Source: a virus
DNA length: 64,000 nt
Virus record (IMG/VR): IMGVR_UViG_3300044858_001565
Location: 1 to 64,000 of that record
Direction: 5' to 3' (one strand)
Below are positions 5,685 to 29,725 of the stretch, piece by piece; within the stretch, counting starts at the first letter, position 1; each line of letters opens with the position of its first letter. The notes below the pieces were generated by a model. It did not search any database and was not told where the DNA came from. It worked only from the letters and a program-made list of their open reading frames with translations. A program made the position numbers and the translations under genes.

Positions 5685-6008
5685 TCAGGTAATTTCTAAC
5701 AAAGAAACAAAAACATGGACAAATCCGGTGAGTCCTGCTCTTGCTCTTAAATAATCATTTGCTTCTAGCACAATAGGAGAGTCCAGTGCCTGAAATGTTG
5801 TGGCAATAGGAACAGCAGCATTTGTTATAAGCGAACACGCTGTAGAACCTCGTACTGCCTCAAGAGTAACTTCCACTCCACCAAGGTTGCTCACATTGCT
5901 GAAGTTTACATTGTTGACGATTGCTGTTCCTGAACACAATCCATTGTAGATGTTTGTGTTTGCAGTGGTTCCAAGTAGTGTCATAAAACTTTTGTATGTC
6001 TCTGGCAT
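5685..6008 (-). CDS. conserved ~107-aa fibre-cassette terminal protein (paralog 1 of 3)
   Basis: Pattern MP.TY(K/R)S...GTTA.T...QALD....LE....LR..AG.TG..H..VS.LEIT is shared with 14780 and 43143. Confidence 0.85.
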   Translation of the reverse strand: MPETYKSFMTLLGTTANTNIYNGLCSGTAIVNNVNFSNVSNLGGVEVTLEAVRGSTACSLITNAAVPIATTFQALDSPIVLEANDYLRARAGLTGFVHVFVSLLEIT

Positions 6009-6011
6009 AAT

Positions 6012-6278
6012 TTATCCTTGTTCTTGTGGCGGTTCGTAATGCACGGTCATGTCTGTATATGTGGGTTCTTCACTCGGGGGAGGTGGATCTGTTATTCCGT
6101 GAAACGCCAGTGCGTCTTCGCGTGAATCAAACCACCTCCACCCATGCACAGGATACTCGTATTCTTCCCTGTGTTCTCTGCTGATGGAGTAATTAGGAGA
6201 GTCCACGAAGTTTGGTGCGTGAAGCAGTCCCGAAATAGTTCCATCTGTTTCCAATAGGTAAAATCCTGAAGTGTCCAT
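6012..6278 (-). CDS. small fibre/adhesin partner protein (putative chaperone)
   Basis: Paralog of 43456..43668 (DTSGFY.LE...PNFV..P.....YPV.GW.WF.SR.DAL). A CATAAATA late promoter lies at 6288-6295. Confidence 0.75.
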   Translation of the reverse strand: MDTSGFYLLETDGTISGLLHAPNFVDSPNYSISREHREEYEYPVHGWRWFDSREDALAFHGITDPPPPSEEPTYTDMTVHYEPPQEQG

Positions 6279-6296
6279 TGCTCCTCCTATTTATGC

Positions 6297-7949
6297 TCAA
6301 GCAACCAAGCCTCCTCCAGTGAGGGTCACAGTCCATCCTTTTGATGTGGCTATTCCTGCACAACAGCCTCCAGTTCCCCAATTTCCTGTGAGATGAATAT
6401 TGTATGTGGTTCCCGACACTGTTGGAAGTCCAGTAAATATTTCGTTTATGGCAGTCGCAGACAGCATACAGCCAGCGAGAGAAATTGATGTGCGTAGATT
6501 GCTTGCCTCAAATCTTCGGAGGTGATAGTTTTGTCTGAACATACTGTTGGAGTTTGCAGTTCTTCCGTATCCGTTGTTCACTACCGCTCCAGCAGAAAAT
6601 CCTTTTACATGGACAGTCTTGCTGCCTAGCAGCATATTCTGAAACTGTGTTCCATTGGTATAGTCCATTGCAGGGAACACCATTACCTGATTGTATGTGA
6701 ACGCAGACTGCCAGTCACGCACATTTCCAGTGCTTAATCCTTCGGGAATTATTTTCAATCGTTTGCAGTTTGCTGCAAATCCGTTCAGGGATCTTGCATT
6801 CTGAAAATTGAACTTTGGAATTTCACGAAGGCTTGCACAGTTTTGGAACATGGAGGCAAATGTGCCACCGTTTACAGTGTTGTAGAGCGGAACGGTGGTG
6901 ATGTTTGCACAGCCCTGAAACATGGAAGTGAACAGGGTCACATTGGATGTGTCTATCTCTGGAGCCTCGCGCAGGGAATAGCACGCATTGAACATCGCAC
7001 TTGTGTTTGTTGCACTGCTAGTATTCATTTTCGGAAGGTGTTCTAGCAGGACACAACTCTGAAATGTCTGGTCAAACGATGTTGATTTGGAGAAGTCAAG
7101 AGGAGGAATGGTTTTTACTTTGGAGCAACCGTTGAATGCACGGAGGAAACTAGTTACCTTCCCTGTATCTGCCCACGGAATGCGGGTCATCAGGCGGCAC
7201 CCTTCAAAAAAAGAGTTCATGTTTGTCAGGTTTCTTGTATATTTTTCCAAGCCTGCAAACCAACGGAGAGAGTATCCATTGAAGAACGCTGATTGACCGC
7301 TCGTTGGGACGGGCATTTCTGTCGCAACTTCTATGAGGGCAAGGTGCTTCATTCCCACTCTCCACCCGTCAGAGAACACACTGCTTATTCCCACCCCTGC
7401 CATCTTGATGTATGCCCACATATGACTTGCATTGGGAGAGTTTGCAATGCTTGGAAGGGTGACTCCTGCTGCCGAGAAGCGTGAGTTCAGTGTTATGGTG
7501 GTAAGAGTTGCCCCTTGTGGGTGTGGCTGTGGATACGCCCGTATGAGAACTTGCCTGTATCCTTCGGGAGTGTCTGTGCCTGGAAAATCCGCCCAGTTGT
7601 ATTGGCGCTGTGCAACTGTGTTTGAGGCGTGTGAAGTGGTGACTCCGTTTCCCCAATCCACGGTGTATGTTCTGCCTGTTCCTGACATTGCAAGGAGAAA
7701 CGCTGCGTAGTTGGAGTCCGCAGACGCTCCAGAGTTGCCAGACGCTCCTTTTGCAAGATAGAATATGCCAGCAAACTCCTGTGCCGTTGGTCCCATTGCA
7801 GGCATTGGTATCCAGTAAGTGGGATACATCCACGGATCGCTTTTTGCGTATTCGCTGTACAGTTTGTTCACGGTCATTATTCCTTGGAGAGGGTGGATCT
7901 CCGAGGTTCCCACATAACCGCCATTTGATCTGTTCATTGAAAACTTCAT
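6297..7949 (-). CDS. BspA/DUF285-like leucine-rich surface-repeat adhesin
   Basis: ~22-aa repeats (MF.GC..L..IP..DTS.VT), an N-terminal [13 protein letters not shown] domain and C-terminal GNWG...IATSKGWTVT. ATGA overlap with the upstream gene. Confidence 0.85.
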   Translation of the reverse strand: MKFSMNRSNGGYVGTSEIHPLQGIMTVNKLYSEYAKSDPWMYPTYWIPMPAMGPTAQEFAGIFYLAKGASGNSGASADSNYAAFLLAMSGTGRTYTVDWGNGVTTSHASNTVAQRQYNWADFPGTDTPEGYRQVLIRAYPQPHPQGATLTTITLNSRFSAAGVTLPSIANSPNASHMWAYIKMAGVGISSVFSDGWRVGMKHLALIEVATEMPVPTSGQSAFFNGYSLRWFAGLEKYTRNLTNMNSFFEGCRLMTRIPWADTGKVTSFLRAFNGCSKVKTIPPLDFSKSTSFDQTFQSCVLLEHLPKMNTSSATNTSAMFNACYSLREAPEIDTSNVTLFTSMFQGCANITTVPLYNTVNGGTFASMFQNCASLREIPKFNFQNARSLNGFAANCKRLKIIPEGLSTGNVRDWQSAFTYNQVMVFPAMDYTNGTQFQNMLLGSKTVHVKGFSAGAVVNNGYGRTANSNSMFRQNYHLRRFEASNLRTSISLAGCMLSATAINEIFTGLPTVSGTTYNIHLTGNWGTGGCCAGIATSKGWTVTLTGGGLVA

Positions 7950-9691
7950 CCAGTCACCGTCCATCCTTTTGCAGTTGCTATGGAGCGATCACAGGCAGCA
8001 GCGCCCCAGTTGTTCGTTATATTTATGGTGCAAGTTCCCTGACTCGTCACCCCTCCAAGACCAGTGAATATTCTGTTCAGTTCTGTTGGAGACAACACGC
8101 ATCCGCTGCTTGCAGAGCCTGTAAAATTGAGGCTTTTTCTTACATTTTCCATTGTTGCTCTGCGTATGTCAGGACACGCGTTGAATGTGTTAAACAGAGG
8201 ACCAGTGAATGAAAGAGTGGACCCACTCAAGTTGTTTGGAAACTTGAATCCATCTGGCAGATGGGTGAGTGCTGTGCAATTGTTGAACATGGTATTAAAA
8301 GTAGCGGATGTGCTGGAAAAACTGTAGGCAGGCACACTAATGAGATTAAGGCAACCGTCGTACATGGAAGAAAAGGCTGTTCCAGAAAGAGTTATGCCTC
8401 CGGTTGGTGTCCTTACTCGCGGAGCGTATCTGAGGTTGGAGCAACTGGCGAACAGGTTTTGCAGGTTCACCGTGACAGCACAGGTTATGCCTTCCACTTC
8501 GGTGAGTGTGAAGCACGAATTGAACAGGTTTGTTCCTACAGTGCAGTTGGGTGCATTGATGTGACCAACCCTTTCAAGACTGTCACAGTTTTGGAATGTG
8601 CTGGAAAGTGTTGTGGCAGCGTTGAATTGCCACGGTGGAAACTCACGAATACACCTCTGCCGCAGAAAGCAAGAGGACCAGTCGGTAATGAGTGCGGTGT
8701 TCCACATGGGGAGATTGCTCAATATTCCGCCAGGAGCCACAGAAGGCATAGGTGTGTCGCCAATTCCCACAGATTCTGTAAATCCCTGTTGCATATTTGT
8801 GACTTTGCTTGTCACGATGGGAGGGGCTTTTACTAGTCCTTTTGCATCACCTGCCCAATACTGAAGAGTAAGGAGCGCAGGGGTCTTCAGCAGAGGGAGC
8901 GAGCGGATGTTGATTGCACCACTGATAAAGTGGCGGAAGTCTGTCTGTCGTTCAGTCCAGTTCGTTCCCGTGATCCGCTCCACACCAGTGCAAGCGTGGA
9001 GGAATCCTGGAACATTTCCGAATCCCGTGAGACTGGTCATGTGCCCGATCATGTTCACTCTTTGCAGGAGGAAATGGCGGGTGCTGTTGTTGCCCGTGAA
9101 AGACGATCCGCCTATGATTACGCTTGAGAGGTTTGGTCCAGACATTGCCACATCAAGCCATTGGGTGGTTGACTTGAAATCTATGGTTGCTACCCCTGCT
9201 TGGGAGAAAGCCCTGTTCAGATTCACGGTTGTAAGAGTCTGTCCAGTCTGTGGATACGCTTGAATCACCACCTGACGGTATCCATCAGGTGTGAGTGTGG
9301 AAGCAGGCACATCCACCCAGTTGTATTGCCGCTGTGCATCGGTATTGGAGGTGTGTGCGGTGGTGACACCGTTGGGGTTTGCTGGTGTGGTTATTCCCCA
9401 ATCAACAATGTAGTTTCCCGAACAACGGAAAGACACAAAGTTGGAGTCAGCGGTGGAACCTGTGTTGCCAGATGCACCTTGAAATATAGCCACAAGCCCC
9501 ACAAATCTCTGCGTTCCCTCTGCGGGAACAGGAAGCGGCAGCCAGTAGGAAGGACGATTCCAGTCCTGAACCTCTCGCTCCACCAGATGGCATTTGTTTG
9601 GAGTAATAACACCGTATCCGTCCGTGTATCGGAGTGGATACCGTGCGCCTCCAACATATCCATTGTTCATTCGGCTGTTTCGTCTTCTCAT
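7946..9691 (-). CDS. BspA/DUF285-like leucine-rich surface-repeat adhesin (divergent repeats)
   Basis: Same N- and C-terminal domains as 6297 and 43679. ATGA overlap with the fibre gene stop. Confidence 0.85.
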   Translation of the reverse strand: MRRRNSRMNNGYVGGARYPLRYTDGYGVITPNKCHLVEREVQDWNRPSYWLPLPVPAEGTQRFVGLVAIFQGASGNTGSTADSNFVSFRCSGNYIVDWGITTPANPNGVTTAHTSNTDAQRQYNWVDVPASTLTPDGYRQVVIQAYPQTGQTLTTVNLNRAFSQAGVATIDFKSTTQWLDVAMSGPNLSSVIIGGSSFTGNNSTRHFLLQRVNMIGHMTSLTGFGNVPGFLHACTGVERITGTNWTERQTDFRHFISGAINIRSLPLLKTPALLTLQYWAGDAKGLVKAPPIVTSKVTNMQQGFTESVGIGDTPMPSVAPGGILSNLPMWNTALITDWSSCFLRQRCIREFPPWQFNAATTLSSTFQNCDSLERVGHINAPNCTVGTNLFNSCFTLTEVEGITCAVTVNLQNLFASCSNLRYAPRVRTPTGGITLSGTAFSSMYDGCLNLISVPAYSFSSTSATFNTMFNNCTALTHLPDGFKFPNNLSGSTLSFTGPLFNTFNACPDIRRATMENVRKSLNFTGSASSGCVLSPTELNRIFTGLGGVTSQGTCTINITNNWGAAACDRSIATAKGWTVTG

Positions 9692-11631
9692 ATAAACCAA
9701 TGCCTCGCCACGCTTGTGCCTGTAACCGCACCAGTCAATCCATTAAAACTTGTCACTCCATCTCCTCCTCCACCTCCTCCCGATGCTGCAATGGTGATGC
9801 CGCCAGCAACAGAAGAAGTAATAGTCACATTGGAACCTGCATTAAGAGTGATTCCACCAGAAATACCATTGAGAACTGTCACTACCCCGTTGGTGAGTGC
9901 CACCGTTCCAGTTTGGTTGGGAAAGATAATTGTTTTGTTGCTCGTTGCGGTATTTGGTGCGGATAGCGTAGTGGTGAATGCGTTGTTTGCATTTCCAAAA
10001 ATTATGTCTGATGGCTCTGTTATCTCTGAGTCGGATCGTGTTCCTAGATACAGATTTCCACCAGATATTTGAACCTGACCGGTTCCACTATCCGAGTTTT
10101 GTATCACTACTTTAGGAACAGTTCCACCAACTCCAATTCCGACTTGCTGTGGTTCAAAGATTAATTGACCGTATGGGTTGAACCACAGGGTTCTTGCAGT
10201 GGTTGATGTTCCAGAAAGAACCGTGAGTGTGGCACCAGGACTGACAATGGTGCTGACAGCCAAAGATGAATTGAAAGTGGCACCGCTGCCCACATAGAGG
10301 AATCCTGCATTGGTTATTCCTGCACTTGAGGAGTTTACGGTAAGAGTCTGTGAAGATTGCAATCCAGCAACACTCATGCAGATTCCACCAGCAAAAGATT
10401 GGGTGGCAGTGAATGTATTTGTTACCGCAGCACACACGCCACCAACAGCACCAGTCAATCCATTGAAAGACTGAACGCCGATGTTGGTGATTGTGACCGT
10501 ACCAGTGTTTGCGTTTACGCTGATACCTGTGCCAGCAACGGCTCGGGTGACACCAGCATTGGTGATTGTGACTGAACCGGTGGCACCCGACACGGAAATT
10601 CCGTCACCTGCCACCGCAGCGGAGACACCTTGCACCGAACCAGTCCTACCATTGAACGAGGTGACCGTATCTGCAACAATTTCGTTTTGGACAAATGCGG
10701 TAGTGGCAATCTGTGTGGTATTGGTACCAACGGCAGCAGTTGTTGATGCGGGAGTTCCTGTGAAGGTCGGAGATGCCAACAATGCATAACTTGCTGCTGC
10801 TACTCCCCCAAGTTGGGTAGAGTTGGTTGCTGTTGTGGCGGTGGTTGCGTTTCCGCTCAGAGGACCGCTGAAACCTGTTGCAGATGACTGTAGACCTGTG
10901 AATGTGTTGGCACCAAGTGATGCACCCGTCACCGCACCTGTTGCGCCGTTGAATGAATGAACTCCGGTGTTCTGCACAACAACTGCGCCAGTGGTGGGAG
11001 AAACAGATATCCCATTTCCTGAACCAGACACAGAAGAAACTGCTCCGCCTCCGCCACCACCAACAAGATTCGTGCCTACACTTGCACTGACACCAGACAG
11101 ATCAATGTAAACACCGCGATTGGTTCCACCACTTTCAAAGATACGCAATCTGTTTTGGTAAACATCAATTGCTACACCACCAGTCAAACTGGTGTTTGTG
11201 GCAGGCAAACCAAAATCTATTTGACCACCCTCGTCACCACCAACCGTCAGCATTCGGAGGTTTTGGGCATTCAATTGAACAGAGAAAGTTCCGCCGTTTG
11301 CGCTTACGCCAGAATTGAATGATTGTAGTGCGGTGAATGTGTTGGCTTGAGCGGCACAAACACCACCAACGGCACCGGTCAAACCATTGAAAGATGCCAC
11401 AAAGTTTCGCCGTGCATATTCGTATACCGCGTTCTGTGTGGGAACTCGGTTTTGTGAAGCAGCAGAACCTGCACCCATGTCCACGCCACCGGTTATTTCT
11501 CCGCCCATCCATCGCACCGCTGCGGTGTTTCCAATAAAGAGTCTGCTGGTAGCGGTATCAAAAGCAGGCTCACCAACGGTCAGACCGGTGGGAGTTGTGG
11601 TTCCTCTTTTGAATTGTATCTGTGTTGGCAA
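9688..11631 (-). CDS. tail fibre protein (Mtd_N-like anchor; ends RHWFI)
   Basis: N-terminus MPTQIQFKRGT..P.GL..GEPAF, a SPTFTGTP fibre repeat and SFNG.TG repeats. Late promoter CTAAATA at 11651-11657. Confidence 0.85.
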   Translation of the reverse strand: MPTQIQFKRGTTTPTGLTVGEPAFDTATSRLFIGNTAAVRWMGGEITGGVDMGAGSAASQNRVPTQNAVYEYARRNFVASFNGLTGAVGGVCAAQANTFTALQSFNSGVSANGGTFSVQLNAQNLRMLTVGGDEGGQIDFGLPATNTSLTGGVAIDVYQNRLRIFESGGTNRGVYIDLSGVSASVGTNLVGGGGGGAVSSVSGSGNGISVSPTTGAVVVQNTGVHSFNGATGAVTGASLGANTFTGLQSSATGFSGPLSGNATTATTATNSTQLGGVAAASYALLASPTFTGTPASTTAAVGTNTTQIATTAFVQNEIVADTVTSFNGRTGSVQGVSAAVAGDGISVSGATGSVTITNAGVTRAVAGTGISVNANTGTVTITNIGVQSFNGLTGAVGGVCAAVTNTFTATQSFAGGICMSVAGLQSSQTLTVNSSSAGITNAGFLYVGSGATFNSSLAVSTIVSPGATLTVLSGTSTTARTLWFNPYGQLIFEPQQVGIGVGGTVPKVVIQNSDSGTGQVQISGGNLYLGTRSDSEITEPSDIIFGNANNAFTTTLSAPNTATSNKTIIFPNQTGTVALTNGVVTVLNGISGGITLNAGSNVTITSSVAGGITIAASGGGGGGDGVTSFNGLTGAVTGTSVARHWFI

Positions 11632-11653
11632 CGGCGGCTCTCCTGACTAGTAT

Positions 11654-11881
11654 TTAGTAGGTGGAGCCATCAAGTACGGGTGCGTCTTTTTTCCGCTTCT
11701 TGCCCTCGGCGGCTTCCAATTTTGCAATTCGTGCGGCTAGTTCGTTTGCTTGCTTCAGGAGGGCTTCCTTTTCCTGTTCAAGCAGGATGGTCTTTGCTTC
11801 AAGCATGATGTTCTGCGACAGCAGTTCGGCAACGCGCTTATTCAGCAGGGGGATAAGAATGGTTTCATTTGGATTACTCAT
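11654..11881 (-). CDS. small coiled-coil fibre-associated protein (ends LDGSTY)
   Basis: Heptad-rich; paralog of 1917 and 22286. Confidence 0.8.
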   Translation of the reverse strand: MSNPNETILIPLLNKRVAELLSQNIMLEAKTILLEQEKEALLKQANELAARIAKLEAAEGKKRKKDAPVLDGSTY

Positions 11882-11911
11882 GGATATAGTCCTTTCACTA
11901 TTGGATCAAAA

Positions 11912-13336
11912 TCAAGTATACGAACCACCGTCTATGGCAGTAATGGTGACTGCTCCGCTAGTCACGGTGAAGTTAAACGAATCAAAACTGGCTAGACCCT
12001 TCACGGATGATGTGGCATTCTGTATTCTGTATTTACCGCTTGAGATTGTTGATACGCCGTTACCGCTAGCATCGGCAATCAGGAGTTCTCCCCATGCAAA
12101 AAGTCCTGCGCCATCTGCTTGAATCAAGTGTCCTTGTGTATTGCTTACTGCAAGTTTGGATAGAGCCGATCCTGCGGCAGCAGCATACAGTATGTCGCCC
12201 TTTGCATACGAACTGAATCCCGTGCCTCCATATGTTGCGCCAACCACGGTTCCTTGCCACACACCTGTAGAAATGGTTCCAACCTTTGTGAGGTTGGAGT
12301 TTACAATATTTGTCCCAAGGCTTGCACCATCAATGACTACCGTTCCATTGATGTAGTAGGCAGGATTTACGGACTTGGTAAGGTTTATGTCTTGGTTGAA
12401 GTTCCATGCAGCAGCAAGAGTGGTGCCTGATGTGGTGTTTGACCAAACAATGGTCTTGTCTGTTGCGCCCTTCAGGGAGATTCCACCGCCATCAGCCGTG
12501 GTGTCTGTGGGAGAGGTGACGCTTCCCAACTCAATGTTCTTGTCATCAACCGAGATGGTTGTGGAGTTTATGGTGGTTGTGGTGCCGTTGACCACAAAGT
12601 TTCCTGCCACCGTGAGGGTGGCACCCACATACAGATTGGAGTCAAATGTAGAACCGCCGTATGCCTGAATGCTGGTAGTGTTCAGGCTGCTGCTTGTGAT
12701 TCCCTGTGTGGCTGTGAGTAGACGGGAGAACGATGCGGTGGCTCCGTTGAGGGTGCCGGATACAGTGACTCCTGCGGCAAATCGTGCAACTCCACCAACA
12801 TCAAGCGTTGACTCTAGAGTGGTTCCACCAACGACATCAAGAATTCCACCAATATCAACTCTTCCTCCAAGCGTTGCTCCACCGTTTACCTGTAGTGTTC
12901 CACCGAAGGTAGAGCCGATGGACGAATACAGATAAGATGTGGTGATTCCTTGGCTTGCAGTCAACAGTCTGCTAAATGTGGCAGTCGCTCCGTCTACGGT
13001 GCCAGAGAATGTTACTCCGCCGCTGAATGTGTTTGTGCCTGTGAATGTGTTGTTGAGCGGCAGGATGTTTGTTCCTGTGCCCATCTGAAATTCTGTTGTC
13101 CATCCGCTGTTCGCTGTGGTGCCAATCAAGGCATAGTATGCAGACACTCCGCTCACATACACCATCATGCCGCGAGTACGGCGACGGTCAAAGATGTTGT
13201 TCAGATCAGCAGTGGTTCCAACGGTTCGCAGACCACCAAGCCCGTGGGCGGTGTCAAACAGGGGAAAAGTCTGTGTGTCCGTGAAAGGACTTATCTGACT
13301 GTTGATTCTTACATTTGTGCTTGGAAAGTCTGCCAT
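11912..13336 (-). CDS. tail fibre-like structural protein (ends IDGGSYT)
   Basis: The GNFVVNGTTTTINSTTISVDDKNIELG motif is typical of T4-like aquatic phage fibres. Paralog of 22525. Confidence 0.85.
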   Translation of the reverse strand: MADFPSTNVRINSQISPFTDTQTFPLFDTAHGLGGLRTVGTTADLNNIFDRRRTRGMMVYVSGVSAYYALIGTTANSGWTTEFQMGTGTNILPLNNTFTGTNTFSGGVTFSGTVDGATATFSRLLTASQGITTSYLYSSIGSTFGGTLQVNGGATLGGRVDIGGILDVVGGTTLESTLDVGGVARFAAGVTVSGTLNGATASFSRLLTATQGITSSSLNTTSIQAYGGSTFDSNLYVGATLTVAGNFVVNGTTTTINSTTISVDDKNIELGSVTSPTDTTADGGGISLKGATDKTIVWSNTTSGTTLAAAWNFNQDINLTKSVNPAYYINGTVVIDGASLGTNIVNSNLTKVGTISTGVWQGTVVGATYGGTGFSSYAKGDILYAAAAGSALSKLAVSNTQGHLIQADGAGLFAWGELLIADASGNGVSTISSGKYRIQNATSSVKGLASFDSFNFTVTSGAVTITAIDGGSYT

Positions 13337-13351: not shown

Positions 13352-14704
13352 TCATTCAGAATAGATGGAAATTGATGTAATGTCTGTTGGTTCTGCTGAA
13401 CGATACACTTTGTAATTTGCGGCAAATCCTGAAGCATTTGTTACTGAAAGGGTTGCTCCCAGAGGAGCGCCACCGTTTCCTGTCATTCCAAAACCAAATC
13501 CATCCTTTGATTCTTTCCAAGACGATATTGTGTTGTAGTAATCATGCACAAGAATGTACAAATACTGAAGTCCTCCTCCGCTTGCTTGGCTCGGAGTAAA
13601 TGTCAGAGTTGTTCCGCTTGTGTTTGCAAACGAAAGAGCAGCATTGGTGCTTGTAATCATTCTGGCACTTTGACCCATTCCAGTGCTCACCAACTGTGAT
13701 CTGTTTGTGATTGATGTTCCACTGGTGTATCCGAAATATATGTTTGAATACCAGTTTGTTGTTCCAAAACTGTAGGTTGCAGTTGCACCAGTGCTAATAT
13801 TTGATGGAATTGAAGAACCACCCGCTGCCTGATACGCAGTCCACTGGCTAGCCCTGGCGGTTACAGAGAAAGAACTGCCGATTGTGTAGCCGCGAATTTC
13901 TGGCAAAGATCCCACTCTGTTGCTTGTTGGACCGAATGAAGTGGCTCCCATCACGGTGCCAGACGCTATTCCGCCTCCACCCGTGTAGACCACAGACATT
14001 CCGAGCGAGTCAATATTGCTAGAATTTGACACATTCCAAGAGAAAGTATACAGTCCCAAATCAGCAGCAGTCTCTCCTAGTTCTAGGTTTCTTGTGTCGT
14101 ATTGGGGAGCAATGGTCGCTGATATAAAAGACACATTCTGATAGGAAAACAAGAGGCTTTCAAGAATATCAAACACGGTTTTGCCTGCCAGATTTGTTCC
14201 GTTTGCGATTCCGCCAACCGATCCTGCGTTTGTTGGGGTTGCCGATCCCCATGTGGCACCCGAAACCAAAAGAGCGCCGGTAGAACCACCGAAAATGGCA
14301 ACCACAGATTTCTTCCAGTCTCCACTCAACCCGAGAGTGCGAACACCGTTGTTTGTGACAGTGATGCTGCCTGACGCAGACGAAACCCCAATATTTGAAC
14401 CACCTAGAAGATTCAGTGTTCCTGTCAGGGAGTTCAGGCTAGCCACACCAGAGGTGTTTGTAGCCACATAATCCGTAACATAGTTCTTTACCGCTGCAAG
14501 ACTGGGAATCTGTAGTGTAAGCCCTGCCGCAATGTCTGAAGACAGACCGCTGATACGGGCACCAATCCACGCTGCCGTTACTCCTGCGCCCCGACCGATG
14601 TGAAGCGTCTGATCGGTAGTGTTGAACGCTGGCTCGCCAAGCGTGAGTCCCGAAGCCGCTGTTGGAGCCGCCGTTCCACGGCGTATAATGATTGTTGTTG
14701 GCAT
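13352..14704 (-). CDS. structural/fibre protein with Mtd_N-like N-terminus
   Basis: MPTTIIIRRGT...LTLGEPAF; positional paralog of 24572. Late promoter CATAAATA at 14748-14755. Confidence 0.8.
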   Translation of the reverse strand: MPTTIIIRRGTAAPTAASGLTLGEPAFNTTDQTLHIGRGAGVTAAWIGARISGLSSDIAAGLTLQIPSLAAVKNYVTDYVATNTSGVASLNSLTGTLNLLGGSNIGVSSASGSITVTNNGVRTLGLSGDWKKSVVAIFGGSTGALLVSGATWGSATPTNAGSVGGIANGTNLAGKTVFDILESLLFSYQNVSFISATIAPQYDTRNLELGETAADLGLYTFSWNVSNSSNIDSLGMSVVYTGGGGIASGTVMGATSFGPTSNRVGSLPEIRGYTIGSSFSVTARASQWTAYQAAGGSSIPSNISTGATATYSFGTTNWYSNIYFGYTSGTSITNRSQLVSTGMGQSARMITSTNAALSFANTSGTTLTFTPSQASGGGLQYLYILVHDYYNTISSWKESKDGFGFGMTGNGGAPLGATLSVTNASGFAANYKVYRSAEPTDITSISIYSE

Positions 14705-14779: not shown

Positions 14780-15103
14780 TCAGGTAATTTCTAAAACAGA
14801 AACAAAGGCATGGATGTATCCTGTTGCTCCGGCGGTGCAGCGCAGAGTGTTGCCTGTTTCCAACACAATAGGCGCGTCAAGTGCTTGCAGGGTGGACGAA
14901 AACGGCACTGCTGCTCCAGTGATGAGTGAGTATCCTGTAGAGCCTTTCACGGCTTCCAGTGTGGCAGTGGTGTTGTTGACACCGTTCACATTGCTCAACA
15001 TGACACCGTTCACGATGGTGGTTGTTGACGCTGGCGTGGTGTAGATGGTGGTTGCAGCAGTGGTGCCGAGAATGGTTCCGAAACTCTTGTAGGTGTCTGG
15101 CAT
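14780..15103 (-). CDS. conserved ~107-aa fibre-cassette terminal protein (paralog 2 of 3)
   Basis: Clear similarity to 5685 and 43143; AAGGAG RBS. Confidence 0.85.
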   Translation of the reverse strand: MPDTYKSFGTILGTTAATTIYTTPASTTTIVNGVMLSNVNGVNNTTATLEAVKGSTGYSLITGAAVPFSSTLQALDAPIVLETGNTLRCTAGATGYIHAFVSVLEIT

Positions 15104-15116: not shown

Positions 15117-15470
15117 TTAAGCAAATCTTCTCACTGGATGCGATGGCGGTGGTATAAGAGGGAGGTACTGTTTTTGTGCTTCGTACAATTCAGTGGTGGT
15201 TCGTAAATTGGTGTGCCATCGAGAATCCTTCACTCCACCACTTGCATCGAAAATGTTCCCACTATTTTTAAGTATTTCTGGTTCTGGCGGCGGCTCTATA
15301 CTTATATGCGGACCCATGTGGTCTACAGCCACCCCCGTGTTTTCCACAAAACAGGTTACGCCTTGAACTTGAACATAATGCCCAAGTCCTGCACCCACAA
15401 GACGAGACTCCATCTCTTCTTTGGTATCAGTTCTCAAATAATAATCGTAGTAATTATACAAGTTATACAC
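15117..15470 (-). CDS. small partner protein of the lectin-like adhesin (putative chaperone)
   Basis: YYLR...WHTNLR...PPSHPVRRFA pattern. It occupies the same cassette slot as 6012 and 43456. Confidence 0.65.
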   Translation of the reverse strand: MYNLYNYYDYYLRTDTKEEMESRLVGAGLGHYVQVQGVTCFVENTGVAVDHMGPHISIEPPPEPEILKNSGNIFDASGGVKDSRWHTNLRTTTELYEAQKQYLPLIPPPSHPVRRFA

Positions 15471-22261: not shown

Positions 22262-22285
22262 AGTGTATCAGTATTTAGCGACAGA

Positions 22286-22507
22286 TTAGTAGACCTGTCC
22301 GTCCAAATGAGGCTCTTCACGCTTTTTGCGCTTGGACTGTGATTCTATTTTGGATTGCAGTTCTTCTATTTGCTTGTGTAGAAAAGCATTCCGTTCCCGT
22401 TCTATGAACAGGTTTGCTTCAAGGATCAGATTCTGATTTGTAAGTTCTCTAAACTTGTTTTGTAAAAAAGGAATGACAACAGTTTCATTGTAATTAGGTT
22501 CACTCAT
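22286..22507 (-). CDS. small coiled-coil fibre-associated protein (ends LDGQVY)
   Basis: Paralog of 11654 and 1917; AAGGAG RBS. Confidence 0.8.
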   Translation of the reverse strand: MSEPNYNETVVIPFLQNKFRELTNQNLILEANLFIERERNAFLHKQIEELQSKIESQSKRKKREEPHLDGQVY

Positions 22508-22524
22508 GGGGATTCTCCTTTAGA

Positions 22525-24552
22525 TCAAGACCAGACACCACCGTCTATGGTGGCTTCAATTTGTGTGCAACTCAAAATATTTGTATTCGCATTAAATGTT
22601 ATTCCAGAAGCCTTGTCAATCCACAGGTCTAGTGCGTCACCAGCATCAGCCACAAAAGTAAGGAACATTTCTCCATTAGTGGTGTTTCTGTCCTGAACTT
22701 TAACTTTGTTTGCCGTTCCTACGGTGAGTCCCGTTGGAGAAGTAAAAACAGGAACTCCAGAAGCATTGGCAAGCAGAATTTGTCCATTCGTACCAGCAGC
22801 GGTTGCAGTAAGACTAGTGGCTGTCTTATAAATTACTCCATTTGTTGCAACCCCACTTATGTCTGCTCCTGCACCACCGTAAGCAAGACCAATCGCGGTT
22901 GCGTTCCATGTTCCGTTGGTAACGGTTCCCACGGATGCCAGGCTTGATCCAACAACTCCACTTCCAAGGAATGTTGATGCAAGAGCAGTGGCTCCATTTA
23001 TTCTGTATGCATAACCAGAATCTAAATTGAAGTGCTGATTGCTTGTCCAAGCACCACCATTATCGTTTTTCCACAGGAGTGTTTTCTGTGTAGGATTTCC
23101 TGTTGTGTTTACTGCAATACCTGACCCATCCATTGCAGAATCAGTACCGGTAGAGCCACCTCCAATTCCGTTGTTTCCAAGTTCAAAAATCTTGTCGTCT
23201 ATCTGAACATTGGTTGAATTTATTGTGGTCTGTGTTCCGTTTACAAACAGGTTTCCACTGACAGTAAGAGTAGCACCTATGGTAGCATTTCCAACTGTAT
23301 CAAAAGTGGTGTTTCCTGCACTGCCAATAATAGTCAGTGTTTCGTTAACAGCAACTTTACCGTTGAAAGTAATTCCGCCAGCAGCAGACAGTCCTGCGGT
23401 GAGGGTTTGCAGACCAGTGAATGTGTTTGCACCAAGAGATGCGCCTGTGGCATTTAGTGTGATTGCTGCCGATCCATTGTAGGGACCACCTGATAGGAGG
23501 TGACCAGCAGACAGGTTTGCAAGGTCACTGCCCAGTGCAATACCAGAAATGGTTGAATTGGCTAGTTTGGTATTCGCTATTGAACCAGTGGGAATTGTGG
23601 TGGTCAGAGTGACATTTGCAGTACCATCAAAGTTGACTGCTGGAGCCGTAATATCACCAGAAAGCGAGAACCCTCTGGGTGTATTTAGAGCGGTTGCAGT
23701 AGAAGCATTTCCTGTCAGGCTGCCAGTGAATGTAGCGGCACGAACCGCGCCTGCAAAATCAACTGCTCGTTCAAATGTGGTTCCCACACGAACATACATT
23801 ACTCCCTGTGTTCCGCCTGGCAGAACTCCTCCGCTCGGACCAATCAGCACATTCCCATTGAAACCGGCATTGGTCAGAACAGCAAAGGAAATTCCCTGAC
23901 CAAGAGATGTGCCAGCAGGAATATTTGCTAGTGGATATGTTACTCCACCCAAAGTTCCAAATATGTTTTCTGTATGCAATCGTGCGTAACTGGCACCCGA
24001 AATACCTGCAAGATTCCACGAATCGTTTGCAATTCCGTTTAGATTGCCAGTAAATGTGGTGGCAGTTACAGATCCACCAAATGTGGCATTTCCATTAAGA
24101 GACAACCCATTCATTCCATAGACAAGACCCGCAAATGTGGCACCATTAGACACCCACAGATTAGATGTGGTGATTCCTTGCAGTGCGTTCACAAGTCTGG
24201 TGAATGTCGCACCAGCAGCGGATATTCCCGTGACAAACTCTGATCCTGTTGCTGAACCAGACGCAAACTCTACGAGATCACCGTTACCTGTTCCACCACG
24301 ATACCAATACACATATGCCTGAGTGACACCACCTGGAACTCCTGGTGTGCTGTTTGCAACAATTATTACCTTTTGACCAATGTAACGAACACCGGGAACA
24401 ATCAAGCCATTTACTAGTGCAACACCAGCGGCGGTTGTTCCAAGCGGATCTTCCCACGGACCCAGATACGCATCTGCTGGTCGTGGAACGAGAACCTTGA
24501 AACCCTTTGCGGGTTCATTGTTTGCTTGGAATGCAGAGTATCCTATAGGCAT
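22525..24552 (-). CDS. tail fibre-like structural protein (ends IDGGVWS)
   Basis: GNLFVNGTQTTINSTNVQIDDKIFELG, ASTATAL.TPR.FSLSGD and FDGTANVTL fibre motifs. Paralog of 11912. Confidence 0.85.
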   Translation of the reverse strand: MPIGYSAFQANNEPAKGFKVLVPRPADAYLGPWEDPLGTTAAGVALVNGLIVPGVRYIGQKVIIVANSTPGVPGGVTQAYVYWYRGGTGNGDLVEFASGSATGSEFVTGISAAGATFTRLVNALQGITTSNLWVSNGATFAGLVYGMNGLSLNGNATFGGSVTATTFTGNLNGIANDSWNLAGISGASYARLHTENIFGTLGGVTYPLANIPAGTSLGQGISFAVLTNAGFNGNVLIGPSGGVLPGGTQGVMYVRVGTTFERAVDFAGAVRAATFTGSLTGNASTATALNTPRGFSLSGDITAPAVNFDGTANVTLTTTIPTGSIANTKLANSTISGIALGSDLANLSAGHLLSGGPYNGSAAITLNATGASLGANTFTGLQTLTAGLSAAGGITFNGKVAVNETLTIIGSAGNTTFDTVGNATIGATLTVSGNLFVNGTQTTINSTNVQIDDKIFELGNNGIGGGSTGTDSAMDGSGIAVNTTGNPTQKTLLWKNDNGGAWTSNQHFNLDSGYAYRINGATALASTFLGSGVVGSSLASVGTVTNGTWNATAIGLAYGGAGADISGVATNGVIYKTATSLTATAAGTNGQILLANASGVPVFTSPTGLTVGTANKVKVQDRNTTNGEMFLTFVADAGDALDLWIDKASGITFNANTNILSCTQIEATIDGGVWS

Positions 24553-24571
24553 ATGTCCTCTTCCTACTTAA

Positions 24572-26260
24572 TCAGGGTGCCGATGTTTCATCCGACCAAA
24601 TCGTTCCATTGAATGCGACAACTAGGTTTTGATTGCCTCCATAAGCACTACCAAGAGTCATACTGTAAATAACATAACCATGAGCCACGCCTGATACATC
24701 ATCAGCCTGAGCCAATGATATTTGATTAAACGAGTCGTTTTCTTGAACAGAATTTCCAAATAGAGTTTCATTACCAGCGTCTATATTCACCACTCCTTTG
24801 ATAGACTGGTTTTTATCATTTAGGGTTAGACCTCGTGGAAGGGCTATGACAAATGTTGAGTATTGCGTTCCTGATGCCATATTAAAGGTTGATCCAGCAA
24901 CCCCCGCTGCAATCGCGGTACCAGAAGTTGGTCCCAAGAACGAATTTGGAAGACTTCTTACAGCGGCAGAGGTGGTTGGAACGCTTGCTGTTGGTCCATA
25001 GAAAATTCTCTTTCGGAACGACACATATGTGTTTGTTCCGTCTGCAAGCATCTGTATACCGTTTCCAGTGTTTGCAGTCAGACCTTCTTTTGCGAAGAAT
25101 CGGAACATCATTGAGGTAAGACCAGCAGCAGGATTTACGGGATTGTTCACCGTAAATGTTGTTCCTGTTGATCCCACATTTGGAGTAACCAAAACAAAGT
25201 TTACTCCGTTTTCAGTATGAGTAGTGCTGTACCAGTTTGTGCCGTTGTTTGGCGAGTACTGCATTCCCACTTCTGCAATATTGTGGTATGTAGTACTCAT
25301 GTTGGGTCCAACAGCAATGGTCACATTTACACTTGTGCCTGTGTTTCCGCGTTCTCTCCGTCTTCCAATTTCTCCTATATGGACACCCGTGAGGGTGGTT
25401 GTCCCCGTAACTCCAGTTGCACTTACTGTTGCGGTGGGATTAGCGAATGTCTGTGGCTGTATTGTGGTGTAGGTAAGTGTAAATCCAGTTGGCTGACCAG
25501 AATTGTCCTTGACTGTATATCTGTAGTGGTATGGAGTGGTTATCCACTGCGTGATGTTTGCCGTATGGGTTGCACTTGCGGTGTATCCTCCTCCATTTAC
25601 GCTCGGAAACTCTGCAAATGGAGCGGATGTATCGTGGAATGGAGATCCGCTGATGGAAGTTGTTGACCACCCACCAGGATTGGCAATAGCGGCGGCAAGA
25701 CTGGCGGCTTGTTGCCATTCAAGTGTTGATCCATTAGCAGTATATCCTGGAGTGAGCAAGTTATAACTAAAAGTCAATCCGAGAGAGACATTTCCCTGAA
25801 CTCCATACAAAATTGTGTTTGCCTGTGTATGCGAAGTGAGATGTATTCTCATGGTAATATACTCTACCAACGCGTCCAAAATTACTTCAATTGGACTCTT
25901 TCCCGCTGATAGTATTGTTTCTCCTGTCCTAAATCTTCCAAAACTTTTATTATCACTCAGGTTTAGTGTCACATTGGATGTGAAAAGAGTGGCACCAGCA
26001 ATGGCAGCAGCAAGATCGTATATGCCTTTGACGGTGCTGAGAGTTGCAGCGGCAGTAATGCCTGTGGGACCGCCCTGAATGTTCAGCAGATTTCCGTTTG
26101 TGATGCCTGCTCCGACCCATACAGAGCCGCCATCTGCATTTCCAATGTACACTCTGTTTGCAAAAGTGCCACCAGTCTGACCCATGAAAGCAAATTCACC
26201 AAAGGTCAATCCGCTTGGGACTGTAGTGGTTGTGGTGCGCTTGATCCTAATAATTGCCAT
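24572..26260 (-). CDS. structural/fibre protein with Mtd_N-like N-terminus
   Basis: MAIIRIKRT...PSGLTFGEFAF; G/T/S-rich beta composition; positional paralog of 13352. Confidence 0.8.
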   Translation of the reverse strand: MAIIRIKRTTTTTVPSGLTFGEFAFMGQTGGTFANRVYIGNADGGSVWVGAGITNGNLLNIQGGPTGITAAATLSTVKGIYDLAAAIAGATLFTSNVTLNLSDNKSFGRFRTGETILSAGKSPIEVILDALVEYITMRIHLTSHTQANTILYGVQGNVSLGLTFSYNLLTPGYTANGSTLEWQQAASLAAAIANPGGWSTTSISGSPFHDTSAPFAEFPSVNGGGYTASATHTANITQWITTPYHYRYTVKDNSGQPTGFTLTYTTIQPQTFANPTATVSATGVTGTTTLTGVHIGEIGRRRERGNTGTSVNVTIAVGPNMSTTYHNIAEVGMQYSPNNGTNWYSTTHTENGVNFVLVTPNVGSTGTTFTVNNPVNPAAGLTSMMFRFFAKEGLTANTGNGIQMLADGTNTYVSFRKRIFYGPTASVPTTSAAVRSLPNSFLGPTSGTAIAAGVAGSTFNMASGTQYSTFVIALPRGLTLNDKNQSIKGVVNIDAGNETLFGNSVQENDSFNQISLAQADDVSGVAHGYVIYSMTLGSAYGGNQNLVVAFNGTIWSDETSAP

Positions 26261-26262
26261 TT

Positions 26263-26712
26263 TTAGAACTCTCCTCCGTCAAGGGATACATCCGTTATTG
26301 GTTCCACAGTACCGTCTAGTGTGAATCCACTGAAGCCTGTCTTGGAAACAATCACACCATCCACGAGCAGTTTTCCTGTGATATTTATATCACCAACCAC
26401 TCCCAGAGTGCTTGAGAGAGTCACCCCCGAAGGGCTTCCGCTAAAGGTGTTTCCATTAACATTGAAATATTGAGCAGTGAGGGTGTCTGTTACAGTCACA
26501 TTGTCGGGCAACCCTATGGTGTAGGTGTTGCCGCTGGCTGTGATCTCTATTTCATTTTCCGTTCCAACCAGTGCAGCACCACCCGATGCACCGCTTGCAC
26601 CTATTACAGTAAAGGTGTACGACTCCCACCCCTCGCCGTTCCACCGCCAGGTCTTGCCGTAGGCAGTGTAGAGTTGATTGGAAACCGGTGAGTTGGGAAA
26701 GTTCAGGGGCAT
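26263..26712 (-). CDS. short virion structural protein (ends LDGGEF)
   Basis: The MPLNFPNSP...Y...GKTW.WNG..W N-terminal motif is common in phage fibre proteins. Confidence 0.75.
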   Translation of the reverse strand: MPLNFPNSPVSNQLYTAYGKTWRWNGEGWESYTFTVIGASGASGGAALVGTENEIEITASGNTYTIGLPDNVTVTDTLTAQYFNVNGNTFSGSPSGVTLSSTLGVVGDINITGKLLVDGVIVSKTGFSGFTLDGTVEPITDVSLDGGEF

Positions 26713-27953
26713 TACAGTAGTTCAAACCATCCCAATTCACCCAAGAACGATGTTCCGTCCGTATACGGGGACACCACAAGGGTCACGGTATCGGATGTGC
26801 CGCCAATGGTGTGTCCCAACTGGTACGAAAACTCACGCGCACCATCCGATCCGCCCAACTCCATTATCGCATTAGAATCAAAATATCCTGACCGTATAGA
26901 AGTTCCGCCGGACACGGATATGGCTCCCCCTGACGGATACGCATACTCCACCGCGCTGTTCGCGCTGTGTGCAGTCCACCCTGCGTTGGTGAGGGTGGCA
27001 TTGGAGAACAGTTCCCACCGAACCACACGGGGCTGATTTGCATTGAGAGGAATAATTGCAGCAGAAATGTTTGCAGGAATCACGATGGAGTCCAATCGGT
27101 CACTCCTCAGCCGTATGGACGCAACATGGTAATACTGCCCTGCGGTGGCAAGATTGACTGGAGCAAGAGTGGTTCCCACATGGAACAGGGGAGATATGGG
27201 TTCAAATCCACCCTCTGATATCACGGACGAGCATATGGTCTTCAGAGTGCTGCCACTGCCAGCGGTGTTGCCGTTGAATATCTCTGCCCGTATGGGAAGA
27301 CACGCGGTAGTCATGTACGGGGTGCTGTACAGGTTGTCATTGTGGAAGGTGTGTGCAATCACTGGCTTGCCGTCGTGGAAGAATCCGCAACGAACATCAC
27401 CCACACCAAGCCACTCCACATCCATCCAGAAAATGTTGCCCTTTGTTGGGTCAAGGGTTATTCCTGAAGCCCCGCTGCCGTCTAGTTTGTCTCCGTTCCA
27501 CTGACCCTGATACACGCGCCGCTCTGCGGAAGAACCAGTGACGCTTGAGCGCAGCACGAACGCAAGACTTACTCCCATCAGCCCTGCCTGCTCAAAATAT
27601 ATTCCGTTGTCTTGGTTGTAGAAGCCCACGCGCTGTGTAAGATTGGCTTTTCCAGGATTCATAACAAAGGTGTTCAGCACCAACAGGGACTTGCCTGGCT
27701 GATACGCAAAAATTCGTTTGGTCTGACGAATCACGGACGCTCCTGCCGTGGTGCCGATCACCATGTCTACGGAACTCTGATTTGACAGATAGGATGTGGT
27801 TCCGCCGTTCACCACAGCAGTATCAAACTTTCCGTTGTCCTTGTATCGGTGCTGCGAATCAAACAGGGTGAACGGCGTGGCTACCTTCAGGCGGTTGAAT
27901 GCGTCAATCGCACCGTCTTCAAAGCCAACCTTGTTGTTGAACAAGTAACTCAT
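26712..27953 (-). CDS. conserved T4-like virion structural protein
   Basis: DAFNRLKV..PFTLFDSQ, RQT...F.YQPGKS and WLGVG.VR.GF motifs seen in aquatic T4-like phages. ATGA/TAATG coupling to both neighbours. Confidence 0.75.
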   Translation of the reverse strand: MSYLFNNKVGFEDGAIDAFNRLKVATPFTLFDSQHRYKDNGKFDTAVVNGGTTSYLSNQSSVDMVIGTTAGASVIRQTKRIFAYQPGKSLLVLNTFVMNPGKANLTQRVGFYNQDNGIYFEQAGLMGVSLAFVLRSSVTGSSAERRVYQGQWNGDKLDGSGASGITLDPTKGNIFWMDVEWLGVGDVRCGFFHDGKPVIAHTFHNDNLYSTPYMTTACLPIRAEIFNGNTAGSGSTLKTICSSVISEGGFEPISPLFHVGTTLAPVNLATAGQYYHVASIRLRSDRLDSIVIPANISAAIIPLNANQPRVVRWELFSNATLTNAGWTAHSANSAVEYAYPSGGAISVSGGTSIRSGYFDSNAIMELGGSDGAREFSYQLGHTIGGTSDTVTLVVSPYTDGTSFLGELGWFELL

Positions 27954-29725
27954 ACGATTCTCCACCCGTTTCTGTATATGAAGTGTAGAGCAGCACTATT
28001 TATGTTGATTACCGCAGACGATTTGTTGTCTATGAGTTCACCATCCGCTCCCACGATGGTTATTCTCTTGTTCCAGTTTCCGCTATGTCCTGCTTCATCC
28101 TTCACGATGATTTCGCGTCCTGTTTCTGGCTCGGAAGGCATCACCACCGTGGTTGGACCGTTGTAACTGATTCCAATATAGTAGTCCAACTGCGTGGCAG
28201 AATAAGTCTCGCCCGTGTACCCAACCACCGTATTGATGGTTGGGCTGATGATGCTCGGAACACTGGGCTGAACCCACTGCTGCGAGTTTCCGTCATCAAT
28301 GTAAATATACTCTTGACCATTTTCCGAGTCCATCCACCGCGAACCAACGGTGACTCCTGCCACCGGAGGAGTTGTCTGATAGAAGAAGTTTGTTCCTCCA
28401 TCTGCTGTTGCAGTGGATGATATGGTCACCGCACCAGTGGAACCGGATATGGTTATGTTTGATCCTGCGATGAGTTGGCTTACACCAGTGACATCACCAG
28501 TTGAACCGTTGAATGTTTTTACATAGTCTCCGCTTATTCCACCAGATGCAGCACCGTTTATATTAACGGTGACCTTTCCTCCCACCTTGGTGTGAGTTAC
28601 AGTAACTCCTGTGCCAGTAAAGTCAAGAACACGAACATCAGGAGTTACTTTTGTTCCGTTCACATATACAGCCACCTTGCCACCACCGCCAGTGGATGCA
28701 AGCCATCCCATGTCTGCTGCGGAAACAGACTTTCCACCAATTATTCGTTTGAGGATTTTTTCTAGTCTCTGCTCGTCAATCTTGATTGACTTCTCGTCTT
28801 TGTCGTAGACAAGAGGAAACTCTGCACTTATTACGCCAGATTCTCCTGTGTCGCCACGATCACCCCTTTCGCCTTTTGATCCCTTCGGACCACGCTTGCC
28901 AGCAGCACCCGGCTTGCCGTCACTACCGCGCTCACCTCTTTCACCACGCGGACCAACAGGACCAATAGGACCAGCAGGACCGACTGCGCCAGCAACACCA
29001 TTCTGTCCTTTGTCTCCCTTGTCGCCCTTTTCGCCGCGCTGTCCCCGTTCTCCCCGTTCTCCCTTTTCACCACGATCACCCTTCTGTCCCTTTTCACCCC
29101 GCTCACCCCTTTCACCTCGCGGACCAATTTCTCCACGATCACCCTTATCGCCCTTTTCTCCTGTTGATCCGCGCTCTCCCTGCGGACCAGTGGCTCCAAT
29201 AGCACCAGCAGGACCAGTGGCACCCATCGGTCCCGCATCGCCTTTCGGTCCACGATCACCCTGCACTCCTTGGAAGCCACGGGTTCCGCGTTCCCCCCGC
29301 TCTCCCCGTTCACCCTTGACCACAGGGGACGGCAGTGCCTGAACCTGCTCGTTTAATCGCTCAACTTGCTTCTGTAGAACGGATTCTTCGGGTGGGGCAG
29401 TCTCTTCCGCCTCCTCCAACACCATCTCAAATGGAGTTTCCACATATTCAAATATGGAATCAATCTGTTTGTCGCCTGCCTCTATCTTCAGAGGCAGACC
29501 ACGGGGATCGGTGAAGAAGGCTTCACCCACTCCACCCAATTTCAATATATTAGGATCATGGCAGTCTGCTTCATCCAAAAGCATGAATTGATCGCCCACA
29601 GAGTACGCGGAACCACGGATTTCGCGCACTAAACGAAACAGCGAACCCGACACGAACTGACCAGTTGAAATGGCGGCAGTTCGGCGTGGCTCTGTGGGCT
29701 TGGATGACTTGCGAGGTCTATTCAT
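27950..29725 (-). CDS. collagen-like fibre protein (charged GER/GEK/GDK triplets)
   Basis: About 50 uninterrupted G-X-Y triplets (about 28840-29320) and a C-terminal fibre-like domain. Late promoter CTAAATA at 29732-29738. Confidence 0.85.
   Translation of the reverse strand: MNRPRKSSKPTEPRRTAAISTGQFVSGSLFRLVREIRGSAYSVGDQFMLLDEADCHDPNILKLGGVGEAFFTDPRGLPLKIEAGDKQIDSIFEYVETPFEMVLEEAEETAPPEESVLQKQVERLNEQVQALPSPVVKGERGERGERGTRGFQGVQGDRGPKGDAGPMGATGPAGAIGATGPQGERGSTGEKGDKGDRGEIGPRGERGERGEKGQKGDRGEKGERGERGQRGEKGDKGDKGQNGVAGAVGPAGPIGPVGPRGERGERGSDGKPGAAGKRGPKGSKGERGDRGDTGESGVISAEFPLVYDKDEKSIKIDEQRLEKILKRIIGGKSVSAADMGWLASTGGGGKVAVYVNGTKVTPDVRVLDFTGTGVTVTHTKVGGKVTVNINGAASGGISGDYVKTFNGSTGDVTGVSQLIAGSNITISGSTGAVTISSTATADGGTNFFYQTTPPVAGVTVGSRWMDSENGQEYIYIDDGNSQQWVQPSVPSIISPTINTVVGYTGETYSATQLDYYIGISYNGPTTVVMPSEPETGREIIVKDEAGHSGNWNKRITIVGADGELIDNKSSAVININSAALHFIYRNGWRIV

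Follow-up and report, generated by a model that had tools for sequence, protein, structure and literature searches.

The DNA considered here comprises positions 1 to 64,000 of the virus record IMGVR_UViG_3300044858_001565, i.e., the initial 64 kb of an IMG/VR record 80.5 kb long; this whole stretch of 64,000 nucleotides is called the window below. Nearly every gene in the window lies on the minus strand. Because ThyX, a DnaB-type helicase, a RecA/UvsX-type protein and a gp43-type polymerase are encoded in it, the phage can be placed among the T4-like phages, and its polymerase gene shows ~76% nucleotide identity over 230 bases to Synechococcus phages. Our subject is a block of 16 open reading frames (ORFs; 7785 amino acids [aa] in total) at positions 5685-29725, which encodes structural proteins of different folds, including leucine-rich repeat (LRR), Ig-like and ConA-like folds, and in which the tripeptide G-x-T (glycine, any residue, threonine) is unusually frequent. 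This G-x-T excess in virion proteins is a real sequence property of the phage clade. The first-pass annotation had read the tripeptide as a glycosylation sequon in which Ser or Cys may stand for Thr, and had connected it with TPR-GT2, a putative glycosyltransferase (GT) with TPR repeats encoded elsewhere in the window. In our view the excess is probably a structural and compositional signature rather than a recognition code, and TPR-GT2 would separately serve, most likely, only a Thr-rich collagen-like fibre encoded beside it.

The features of the block are given below, with observed G-x-T counts and the counts expected from per-protein shuffles.

5685..6008, minus strand: small protein of 107 aa, phrog_1276, paralog of 14780-15103 and 43143-43499; contains GLCSG
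6297..9700, minus strand: two paralogous DUF285/BspA-type LRR adhesin-like proteins (6297-7964 and 7946-9700); G-x-T 9 against 5.1 and 12 against 6.2 expected
9688..11631, minus strand: fibre of 647 aa with a Mtd_N-like N-terminus and S-F-N-G-x-T-G-x-V repeats; all 3 Cys in G-x-C (GVC twice, GIC)
11912..13336, minus strand: virion structural protein of 474 aa, phrog_6002; G-x-T 21 against 10.7 expected
13352..14704, minus strand: fibre of 450 aa with a Mtd_N N-terminal domain; G-x-T 16 against 7.7 expected
15463..16980, minus strand: tail protein of 505 aa, phrog_5939, with a ConA-like/Laminin_G_3 C-terminus; contains GACAP and GVCSA
16988..22261, minus strand: modular fibre of 1757 aa, with repeated blocks common with 9688-11631; G-x-T 45 against 46.9 expected, not enriched; both Cys in G-x-C
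22525..24552, minus strand: structural protein of 675 aa, phrog_6002/697; G-x-T 16 against 13.9 expected
24572..26260, minus strand: protein of 562 aa, modelled as tandem Ig-like beta-sandwiches; G-x-T 24 against 9.6 expected
26712..27965, minus strand: virion structural protein of 417 aa, phrog_1645, with a ConA-like lectin fold; G-x-T 11 against 3.6 expected
27950..29725, minus strand: collagen-like fibre of 591 aa, charged type (GER/GDR/GEK triplets); Thr at the third triplet position only 7%

No nucleotide match to the structural block was found among cultured phages, and protein searches of cultured phages with 24572-26260 and 9688-11631 returned nothing or one short match only; related genomes were therefore taken from IMG/VR. 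Orthologues of the lectin-like protein 26712-27965 are present in more than 120 cultured cyanophages. Its surroundings are also kept in the related genome G020 (161505-165726), where, as at 26712-29725 of the window, a charged collagen gene directly precedes that of the phrog_1645 lectin-like virion protein; in G020 this protein is flanked by the charged collagen and a second, Thr-type collagen. The three phrog_1276 paralogs (5685-6008, 14780-15103 and 43143-43499; 107-118 aa) all end in ...LEIT, and each closes a fibre or adhesin module on its downstream side.

G-x-T counts, residue conservation and structural position

Counted against composition-preserving shuffles, as the first-pass annotation had suggested, G-x-T occurs 213 times in the 16 structural ORFs, where 139.2 occurrences are expected (z 7.6; ~1.5x), and the excess is present in 13 of them. 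The 36 non-structural ORFs of the window contain 36 G-x-T against 36.5 expected (0.99), in agreement with the earlier remark that the replication enzymes are not studded with the motif. What had been described as a pervasive pattern in the structural proteins is thus enriched beyond composition, but it does not extend to the 1757-aa fibre, and it is weak for Ser, G-x-S being marginal (119 against 94 expected).

Since the block is highly repetitive, with blocks 48-86% identical between 16988-22261 and 9688-11631 and with pairs of LRR and 107-aa paralogs, the same repeat units might simply have been counted many times. This explanation was refuted by masking, i.e., by keeping only the first copy of each repeat or paralog: the excess now rises to 1.77x (144 G-x-T against 81.2 expected, z 8.0), and the most repetitive protein, 16988-22261, is the one without enrichment, so that an artefact of internal repeats or paralogy can hardly be entertained. 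G-x-S stays at ~1.2x after masking (75 against 63).

Only the +2 spacing is enriched, Gly followed by Thr at +1, +3 or +4 being at or below expectation. In the masked data, the observed/expected ratios at the second position after Gly (G+2) are 1.79 for Thr, 1.21 for Ser and 1.14 for Val; in the unmasked data, Val at this position is enriched 1.37-1.47 (1.37 for G-x-V), and F-x-G is the sole stronger pair at the same gap. The flanks of the motif can be written [S/N/D]-G-[A/V/I]-T-[G/A/L/F]. Nearly all Gly/Thr codon pairs share in the excess, which therefore acts at the amino-acid level, and a DNA-level motif or codon-pair bias is ruled out by this spread. Tandem G-x-[TS]-G-x-[TS] doublets were also considered as a specific signal and rejected, for they are 2.5x enriched here but 2.6-3.0x in three of four tested cultured cyanophages that lack GTs (1.5x in S-CAM9).

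Part of the pattern can be traced to a fibre repeat, S-F-N-G-x-T-G-x-V-x-G-x-[S/C], which occurs 14 times in 9688-11631 and 16988-22261. Its core N-G-x-T-G-x-[VIL] is present in 17, 19 and 7 copies in this genome (G000) and in the sister genomes G026 and G020, respectively, and was not found in T4, in four cultured cyanophages, or in G002 and Tunturi_5, two phages that are unrelated or only distantly related to that of the window. In the form S-[FV]-N-G-x-T-G-x-V, the repeat supplies ~17 of the block's 38 G-x-T-G occurrences; it cannot explain the overall excess, because the latter grows after repeat masking.

The excess is family-wide in two of the proteins, amounting to 2.12 in 40 homologues of 24572-26260 (identity down to 29%) and to 2.05 throughout 120 homologues of 26712-27965. 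In the former family, 48.5% of homologue cells retain Thr at the G-x-T positions, compared with 41.4% at the positions of other Thr; Ser is found instead in 15.1% of the G-x-T cells (other Thr, 16.1%) and Cys in 0.1%. In the latter, Thr conservation is 56.4% in G-x-T against 58.6% elsewhere, and replacement by Ser 9.4% against 5.7%. Eight G-x-T sites of the 24572-26260 family are nearly invariant, their Thr being almost never Ser, and at its variable sites Thr swaps with Val or Ile. The proposal that a nucleophilic side chain (OH or SH) is conserved two residues after Gly was not borne out by these data: the Thr of G-x-T does not exceed other Thr in conservation or in the frequency with which Ser or Cys takes its place, and Val is co-enriched at the same position.

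The structural models indicate where these residues lie. In the AF2 model of 24572-26260 (mean pLDDT 70.7), 7 of 17 G-x-T Thr are found at a strand start (-1 to +2), whereas among the 52 other Thr only 5 are (Fisher p 0.0065). For 26712-27965, whose model has a mean pLDDT of 79.4, the corresponding counts, 10 of 20 and 17 of 52, point the same way without reaching significance. According to the secondary structure of the models, G-x-T sites cluster at loop-to-strand junctions. From this we infer a structural role for the motif. The virion proteins are modules rich in Gly and Thr (beta-sandwich, LRR and fibre); a loop in them would tend to end with Gly, and the beta-branched residue two positions on (Thr, also Val) would tend to occupy the opening turn of the strand that follows. 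The clade-specific repeat S-[FV]-N-G-x-T-G-x-V is one source of G-x-T, and the rest would stem from a clade-wide preference for G-x-T that also touches non-virion proteins of the sister genomes.

The Cys-containing variants deserve separate treatment. All strings cited in the first-pass annotation are present: GVCAA (twice) and GICM in 9688-11631, GACG in 16988-22261, GACAP and GVCSA in 15463-16980, and GLCSG in 5685-6008. The paralog said to carry GLSG in place of GLCSG exists as well, as the 118-aa ORF 43143-43499, but it lies outside the block and aligns only with a one-residue indel. G-x-C occurs 11 times in the block against 4.9 expected (8 against 2.8 after masking; two cases are duplicates) and 10 times against 4.1 in the cross-genome scoring of this genome. 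It was conceivable that Cys two residues after Gly in Cys-poor fibres serves as a thiol acceptor for a SunS/ThuS-like activity of TPR-GT2. All five Cys of the fibres 9688-11631 and 16988-22261 fall in G-x-C, GVC occupies the GVS/GAS position of sister repeats, and ThuS and SunS are among the PDB matches of the enzyme (E 3.6e-6 to 5.7e-4). We nevertheless hold S-glycosylation to be very improbable, as there are only 11 cases, two of them copies of one repeat, as Thr of G-x-T is almost never replaced by Cys in the two protein families, as the pattern was picked post hoc, and as one base change suffices to turn Ser into Cys. Moreover, G-x-C is not enriched in the other genomes carrying the enzyme (1 against 4.8, 2 against 3.1, 0 against 0.6 and 8 against 9.7), so that the relatives do not bear out Cys as a sequon variant replacing Thr or Ser. 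Ordinary small-residue substitutions, and chance, account for the Cys cases. We also would like to point out residue 46 of 24572-26260, in a low-confidence N-terminal region, where a G-x-[TSC] column holds Thr 15, Ser 11 and Cys 13 times in the 40 homologues; nowhere else was Cys found to be common at the motif position.

G-x-T across genomes with and without the enzyme

Genomes were compared over their whole length using Gly/Thr-rich ORFs from which G-x-y runs of at least three triplets had been removed. Among the carriers of the enzyme, the observed/expected ratio of G-x-T is 1.49 in this genome, 1.51 in G026, 1.11 in G020, 0.99 in G002 and 1.06 in Tunturi_5. A ratio of 1.43 was obtained for G025, a contig without GT1/GT2-family match that is 83% complete, and of 0.78 (few residues) for G005, which is without a detected GT. 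Gly/Thr-rich ORFs near relatives of 24572-26260 on 41 IMG/VR contigs average 1.80, collagen runs included. The excess in non-collagen proteins therefore does not track the enzyme across genomes, as a sequon of that enzyme should. Different TPR-GT alleles had also been expected to go with different tripeptides; the preferences at G+2 do differ between G020 (Leu/Ser) and G026 (Thr/Val), although the enzymes of these two genomes are 74% identical to each other, which does not fit a sequon.

Orthologue-matched comparisons were made with 34 orthogroups common to G026, G020 and the cultured cyanophages. T4-type virion core proteins score 1.45 in the two clade genomes against 0.97 in the cultured phages, and all other shared genes 1.47 against 0.96; for 18 of these other genes, which lie outside the structural module, the values are 1.53 and 1.06 (hand sum), and 9 of the 18 match genes of the replication region of the window. 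If a cytoplasmic enzyme read G-x-T, selection against the motif in enzymes would be expected, which is the opposite of what the sister genomes display. According to the first-pass annotation, equal enrichment in homologous fibres from phages lacking GTs would refute the sequon, and on this point the outcome is mixed. In the lectin-like protein 26712-27965, G-x-T is observed 11 times here (3.6 expected) and 12 times in G020 (4.3 expected), and its orthologues in GT-less cultured cyanophages contain 5-8 against 3.2-4.1; overall the GT-less cyanophages have no excess (1.02-1.12), which speaks for the sequon, but five G-x-[TS] sites are kept in this orthologous protein. As a side observation, non-virion orthologues of G020 and G026, replication genes included, stand at ~1.5, and the window's own non-structural genes are without excess.

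The equal excess in virion core proteins and in other shared genes of G020 and G026 would also be explained by a neutral context bias, by which the whole proteome of the clade drifted to G-x-T irrespective of fold or modification, the drift being more visible in Gly/Thr-rich proteins. The 'other' genes of G005 point in the same direction (1.34), no PF00535 (GT2) or TPR-GT2 match having been found in G005 (GT1 was not searched). Against such drift stand the non-structural ORFs of the window, which are without excess, the spread over codon pairs, with no DNA-level motif explaining the excess, and the many sites that are conserved and located at strand starts; we regard it as unlikely.

Several observations weigh against a purely structural and compositional reading and have to be set beside it. 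The contrast within the window is sharp (structural 1.53, non-structural 0.99). Almost no excess is seen in T4 (structural proteins 1.11, fibres 1.27), and Gly/Thr-rich ORFs of four complete cultured cyanophages without GT score 1.02-1.12; no GT2 match was found in these four, and for GT1 a sub-threshold match only, in S-CAM9. The longer motif G-[AVILFP]-T-[AVILFG] is enriched 2.6x, 2.6x and 1.8x in G000, G026 and G020 and is at ~1.0 elsewhere, and, between orthologues of the same fold, G-x-T numbers in the clade are roughly double those in cultured phages. Finally, an acceptor of the G-x-T type has a precedent, since the SgtA glycosyltransferase accepts short linear GPT/GAT peptides. On account of T4 and the GT-less cyanophages the motif is no general property of phage fibres, and this candidate, also contradicted by the average of 1.20 in 150 representatives of the broad 11912-13336 family, was discarded.

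The alternative that draws on these observations is that TPR-GT2 O-glycosylates Thr, and to a lesser extent Ser, in G-x-T(-G/hydrophobic) on many outer virion proteins before assembly, giving a glycan coat, and that acceptor selection produced the excess. The contrast within the window, the coincidence of a clade-specific four-residue motif with a conserved enzyme, the modification by SgtA of Thr, and also Ser, in short peptides, and the fact that the nearest solved relatives of TPR-GT2 are all protein glycosyltransferases speak in its favour, as does a non-collagen fibre cassette adjoining the GT island, which is itself enriched (17 against 8.3). Yet there is no association beyond the clade (G002 and Tunturi_5), and the association that exists is confined to one clade and inseparable from shared descent. 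G020 reaches only 1.11 with an enzyme 74% identical to that of G026, non-virion orthologues of the sister genomes are equally enriched where a promiscuous cytoplasmic enzyme should select against the motif, the hydroxyl group has no extra conservation, and Ser is enriched only 1.2x while Val is co-enriched. We consider this alternative improbable, and find it doubtful to a slightly greater degree that a conserved SgtA-like TPR-GT2 of this uncultured clade would glycosylate Thr in G-x-T(-G/hydrophobic) on the neighbouring collagen plus many differently folded outer virion proteins, so that the phage would encode its own glycan coat, specified by a simple linear sequon. The sequon idea retains a modest probability, given the precedent of SgtA and the sharp difference between structural and non-structural ORFs of the window.

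TPR-GT2, the collagen-like fibres and known systems

The structural and compositional reading of G-x-T leaves a separate place for the enzyme, which is encoded, together with its probable substrate, outside the structural block.

48125..49381, minus strand: TPR-GT2, N-terminal GT-A domain followed by TPR repeats, with a D100-A-D102 motif
45910..47565, minus strand: Thr-type collagen-like fibre of 551 aa, with 27 GPT, 16 GNT and 7 GET triplets

Residues 19-111 of TPR-GT2 match PF00535 (E 3.3e-10), several TPR families match residues 191-250, and consensus TPR proteins are matched in the PDB. The best solved matches of the GT domain are GmaR (E 3.5e-8), ThuS and SunS. Both collagens of the window match PF01391 and contain long uninterrupted G-x-y runs (27950-29725, E 1.2e-28, 54 triplets; 45910-47565, E 3.2e-38, 100 triplets). 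Two collagen classes are found in each of three phages, a charged one (GER/GDK/GEK, third-position Thr at most 7%) and a Thr-type one (50-68% third-position Thr); the loci are 27950-29725 and 45910-47565 in the window, 161505-165726 in G020, and 86024-88876 and 100951-103386 in G026. The region 43000-56000 of the window forms a sugar-gene island with a G+C content of 0.36-0.45 against ~0.50 elsewhere, encoding several glycosyltransferases, two methyltransferases and an epimerase.

The Thr-type collagen gene lies 560 bp downstream of TPR-GT2. The corresponding distance is 209 bp in G002, 3.7 kb in Tunturi_5 and 53-105 kb in G026 and G020, so that enzyme and collagen adjoin at three loci (window 45910-49381; G002 103790-107921; Tunturi_5, PP885688, 28905-38267). 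Of 29 related contigs, 11 carry an enzyme homologue, among them 3 of the 4 that are at least 90% complete. Another homologue is present in the unrelated, cultured jumbo phage Tunturi_5, whose collagen has GPT/GAT triplets; two of the three phages with the enzyme beside a Thr-type collagen, G002 and Tunturi_5, are unrelated or only distantly related to that of the window. A similar arrangement is known from Clostridioides difficile, in which SgtA, composed of a GT-A domain and TPR repeats, is encoded immediately upstream of bclA3 and, in short peptides, modifies the Thr of GPT and GAT triplets with beta-O-GlcNAc, Ser being accepted as well (PMC7157674). In Listeria monocytogenes, GmaR, in which a GT domain is followed by a TPR domain, O-GlcNAcylates flagellin (PMC9638930).

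By its domain architecture TPR-GT2 appears to be an SgtA/GmaR-type cytoplasmic protein O-glycosyltransferase, and from this analogy we infer that the GPT/GNT collagen 45910-47565 is its most probable substrate. The pairing is well supported, because the analogy is joined by recurrence in three phages; a phage-borne GT-A plus TPR enzyme beside a Thr-type collagen, with an architecture resembling SgtA/BclA3, is well grounded as a predicted gene arrangement. TPR-GT2 would then glycosylate the Thr-type collagen encoded beside it, most likely that fibre alone. The link drawn in the first-pass annotation between TPR-GT2 and the G-P-T/G-N-T collagen accordingly finds support in gene adjacency and in the protein-glycosylating class of the enzyme, but its extension to non-collagen proteins does not.

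A simple sequon for a phage protein glycosyltransferase would make virion glycosylation predictable from sequence and would matter for the stability of the particle, for its recognition by the immune system and for the recognition of the host. Glycosylation cannot safely be predicted by counting motifs alone, because the excess is shared with non-virion proteins of the sister phages and does not follow the enzyme. The enzyme-collagen pair itself constitutes a concrete target for a cheap biochemical experiment.

Among known systems, the G-x-T sites can be likened to the common beta-sandwich pattern of a loop ending in Gly and a strand opening with a beta-branched residue. Here too Gly is followed by Thr or Val at the first positions of a strand, with alternating hydrophobic neighbours; the difference resides in the size of the excess, which is clade-specific and absent in T4 and four cultured cyanophages. 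SunS and ThuS, which glycosylate Cys of glycocin peptides, resemble TPR-GT2 in that their GT2 domains (PDB 7msp, 7msn, 7msk) are among its best PDB matches, but the match is weak (E 3.6e-6 to 5.7e-4) and covers ~90 N-terminal residues, and the Cys pattern is absent in relatives. BclA of Bacillus anthracis, a surface filament of the collagen-like type, bears O-linked sugars in a GPT-rich region; it shares with the Thr-type fibre its filamentous collagen-like nature and its GPT triplets, BclA being a bacterial exosporium protein and the window's a predicted phage fibre. GmaR is the best solved match of the GT domain, has the same GT plus TPR layout and targets a surface filament protein, but at 637 aa it has an additional antirepressor domain, and no G-x-T sequon is given for it in the excerpt of PMC9638930. 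For SgtA, there is no report of action on folded non-collagen proteins. The SgtA/BclA3 pair differs from that of the window, which is phage-borne, has a GPT/GNT/GPQ collagen and is likened to it by architecture, but both have a GT-A domain followed by TPR repeats in an enzyme whose gene adjoins that of a GPT-rich collagen.

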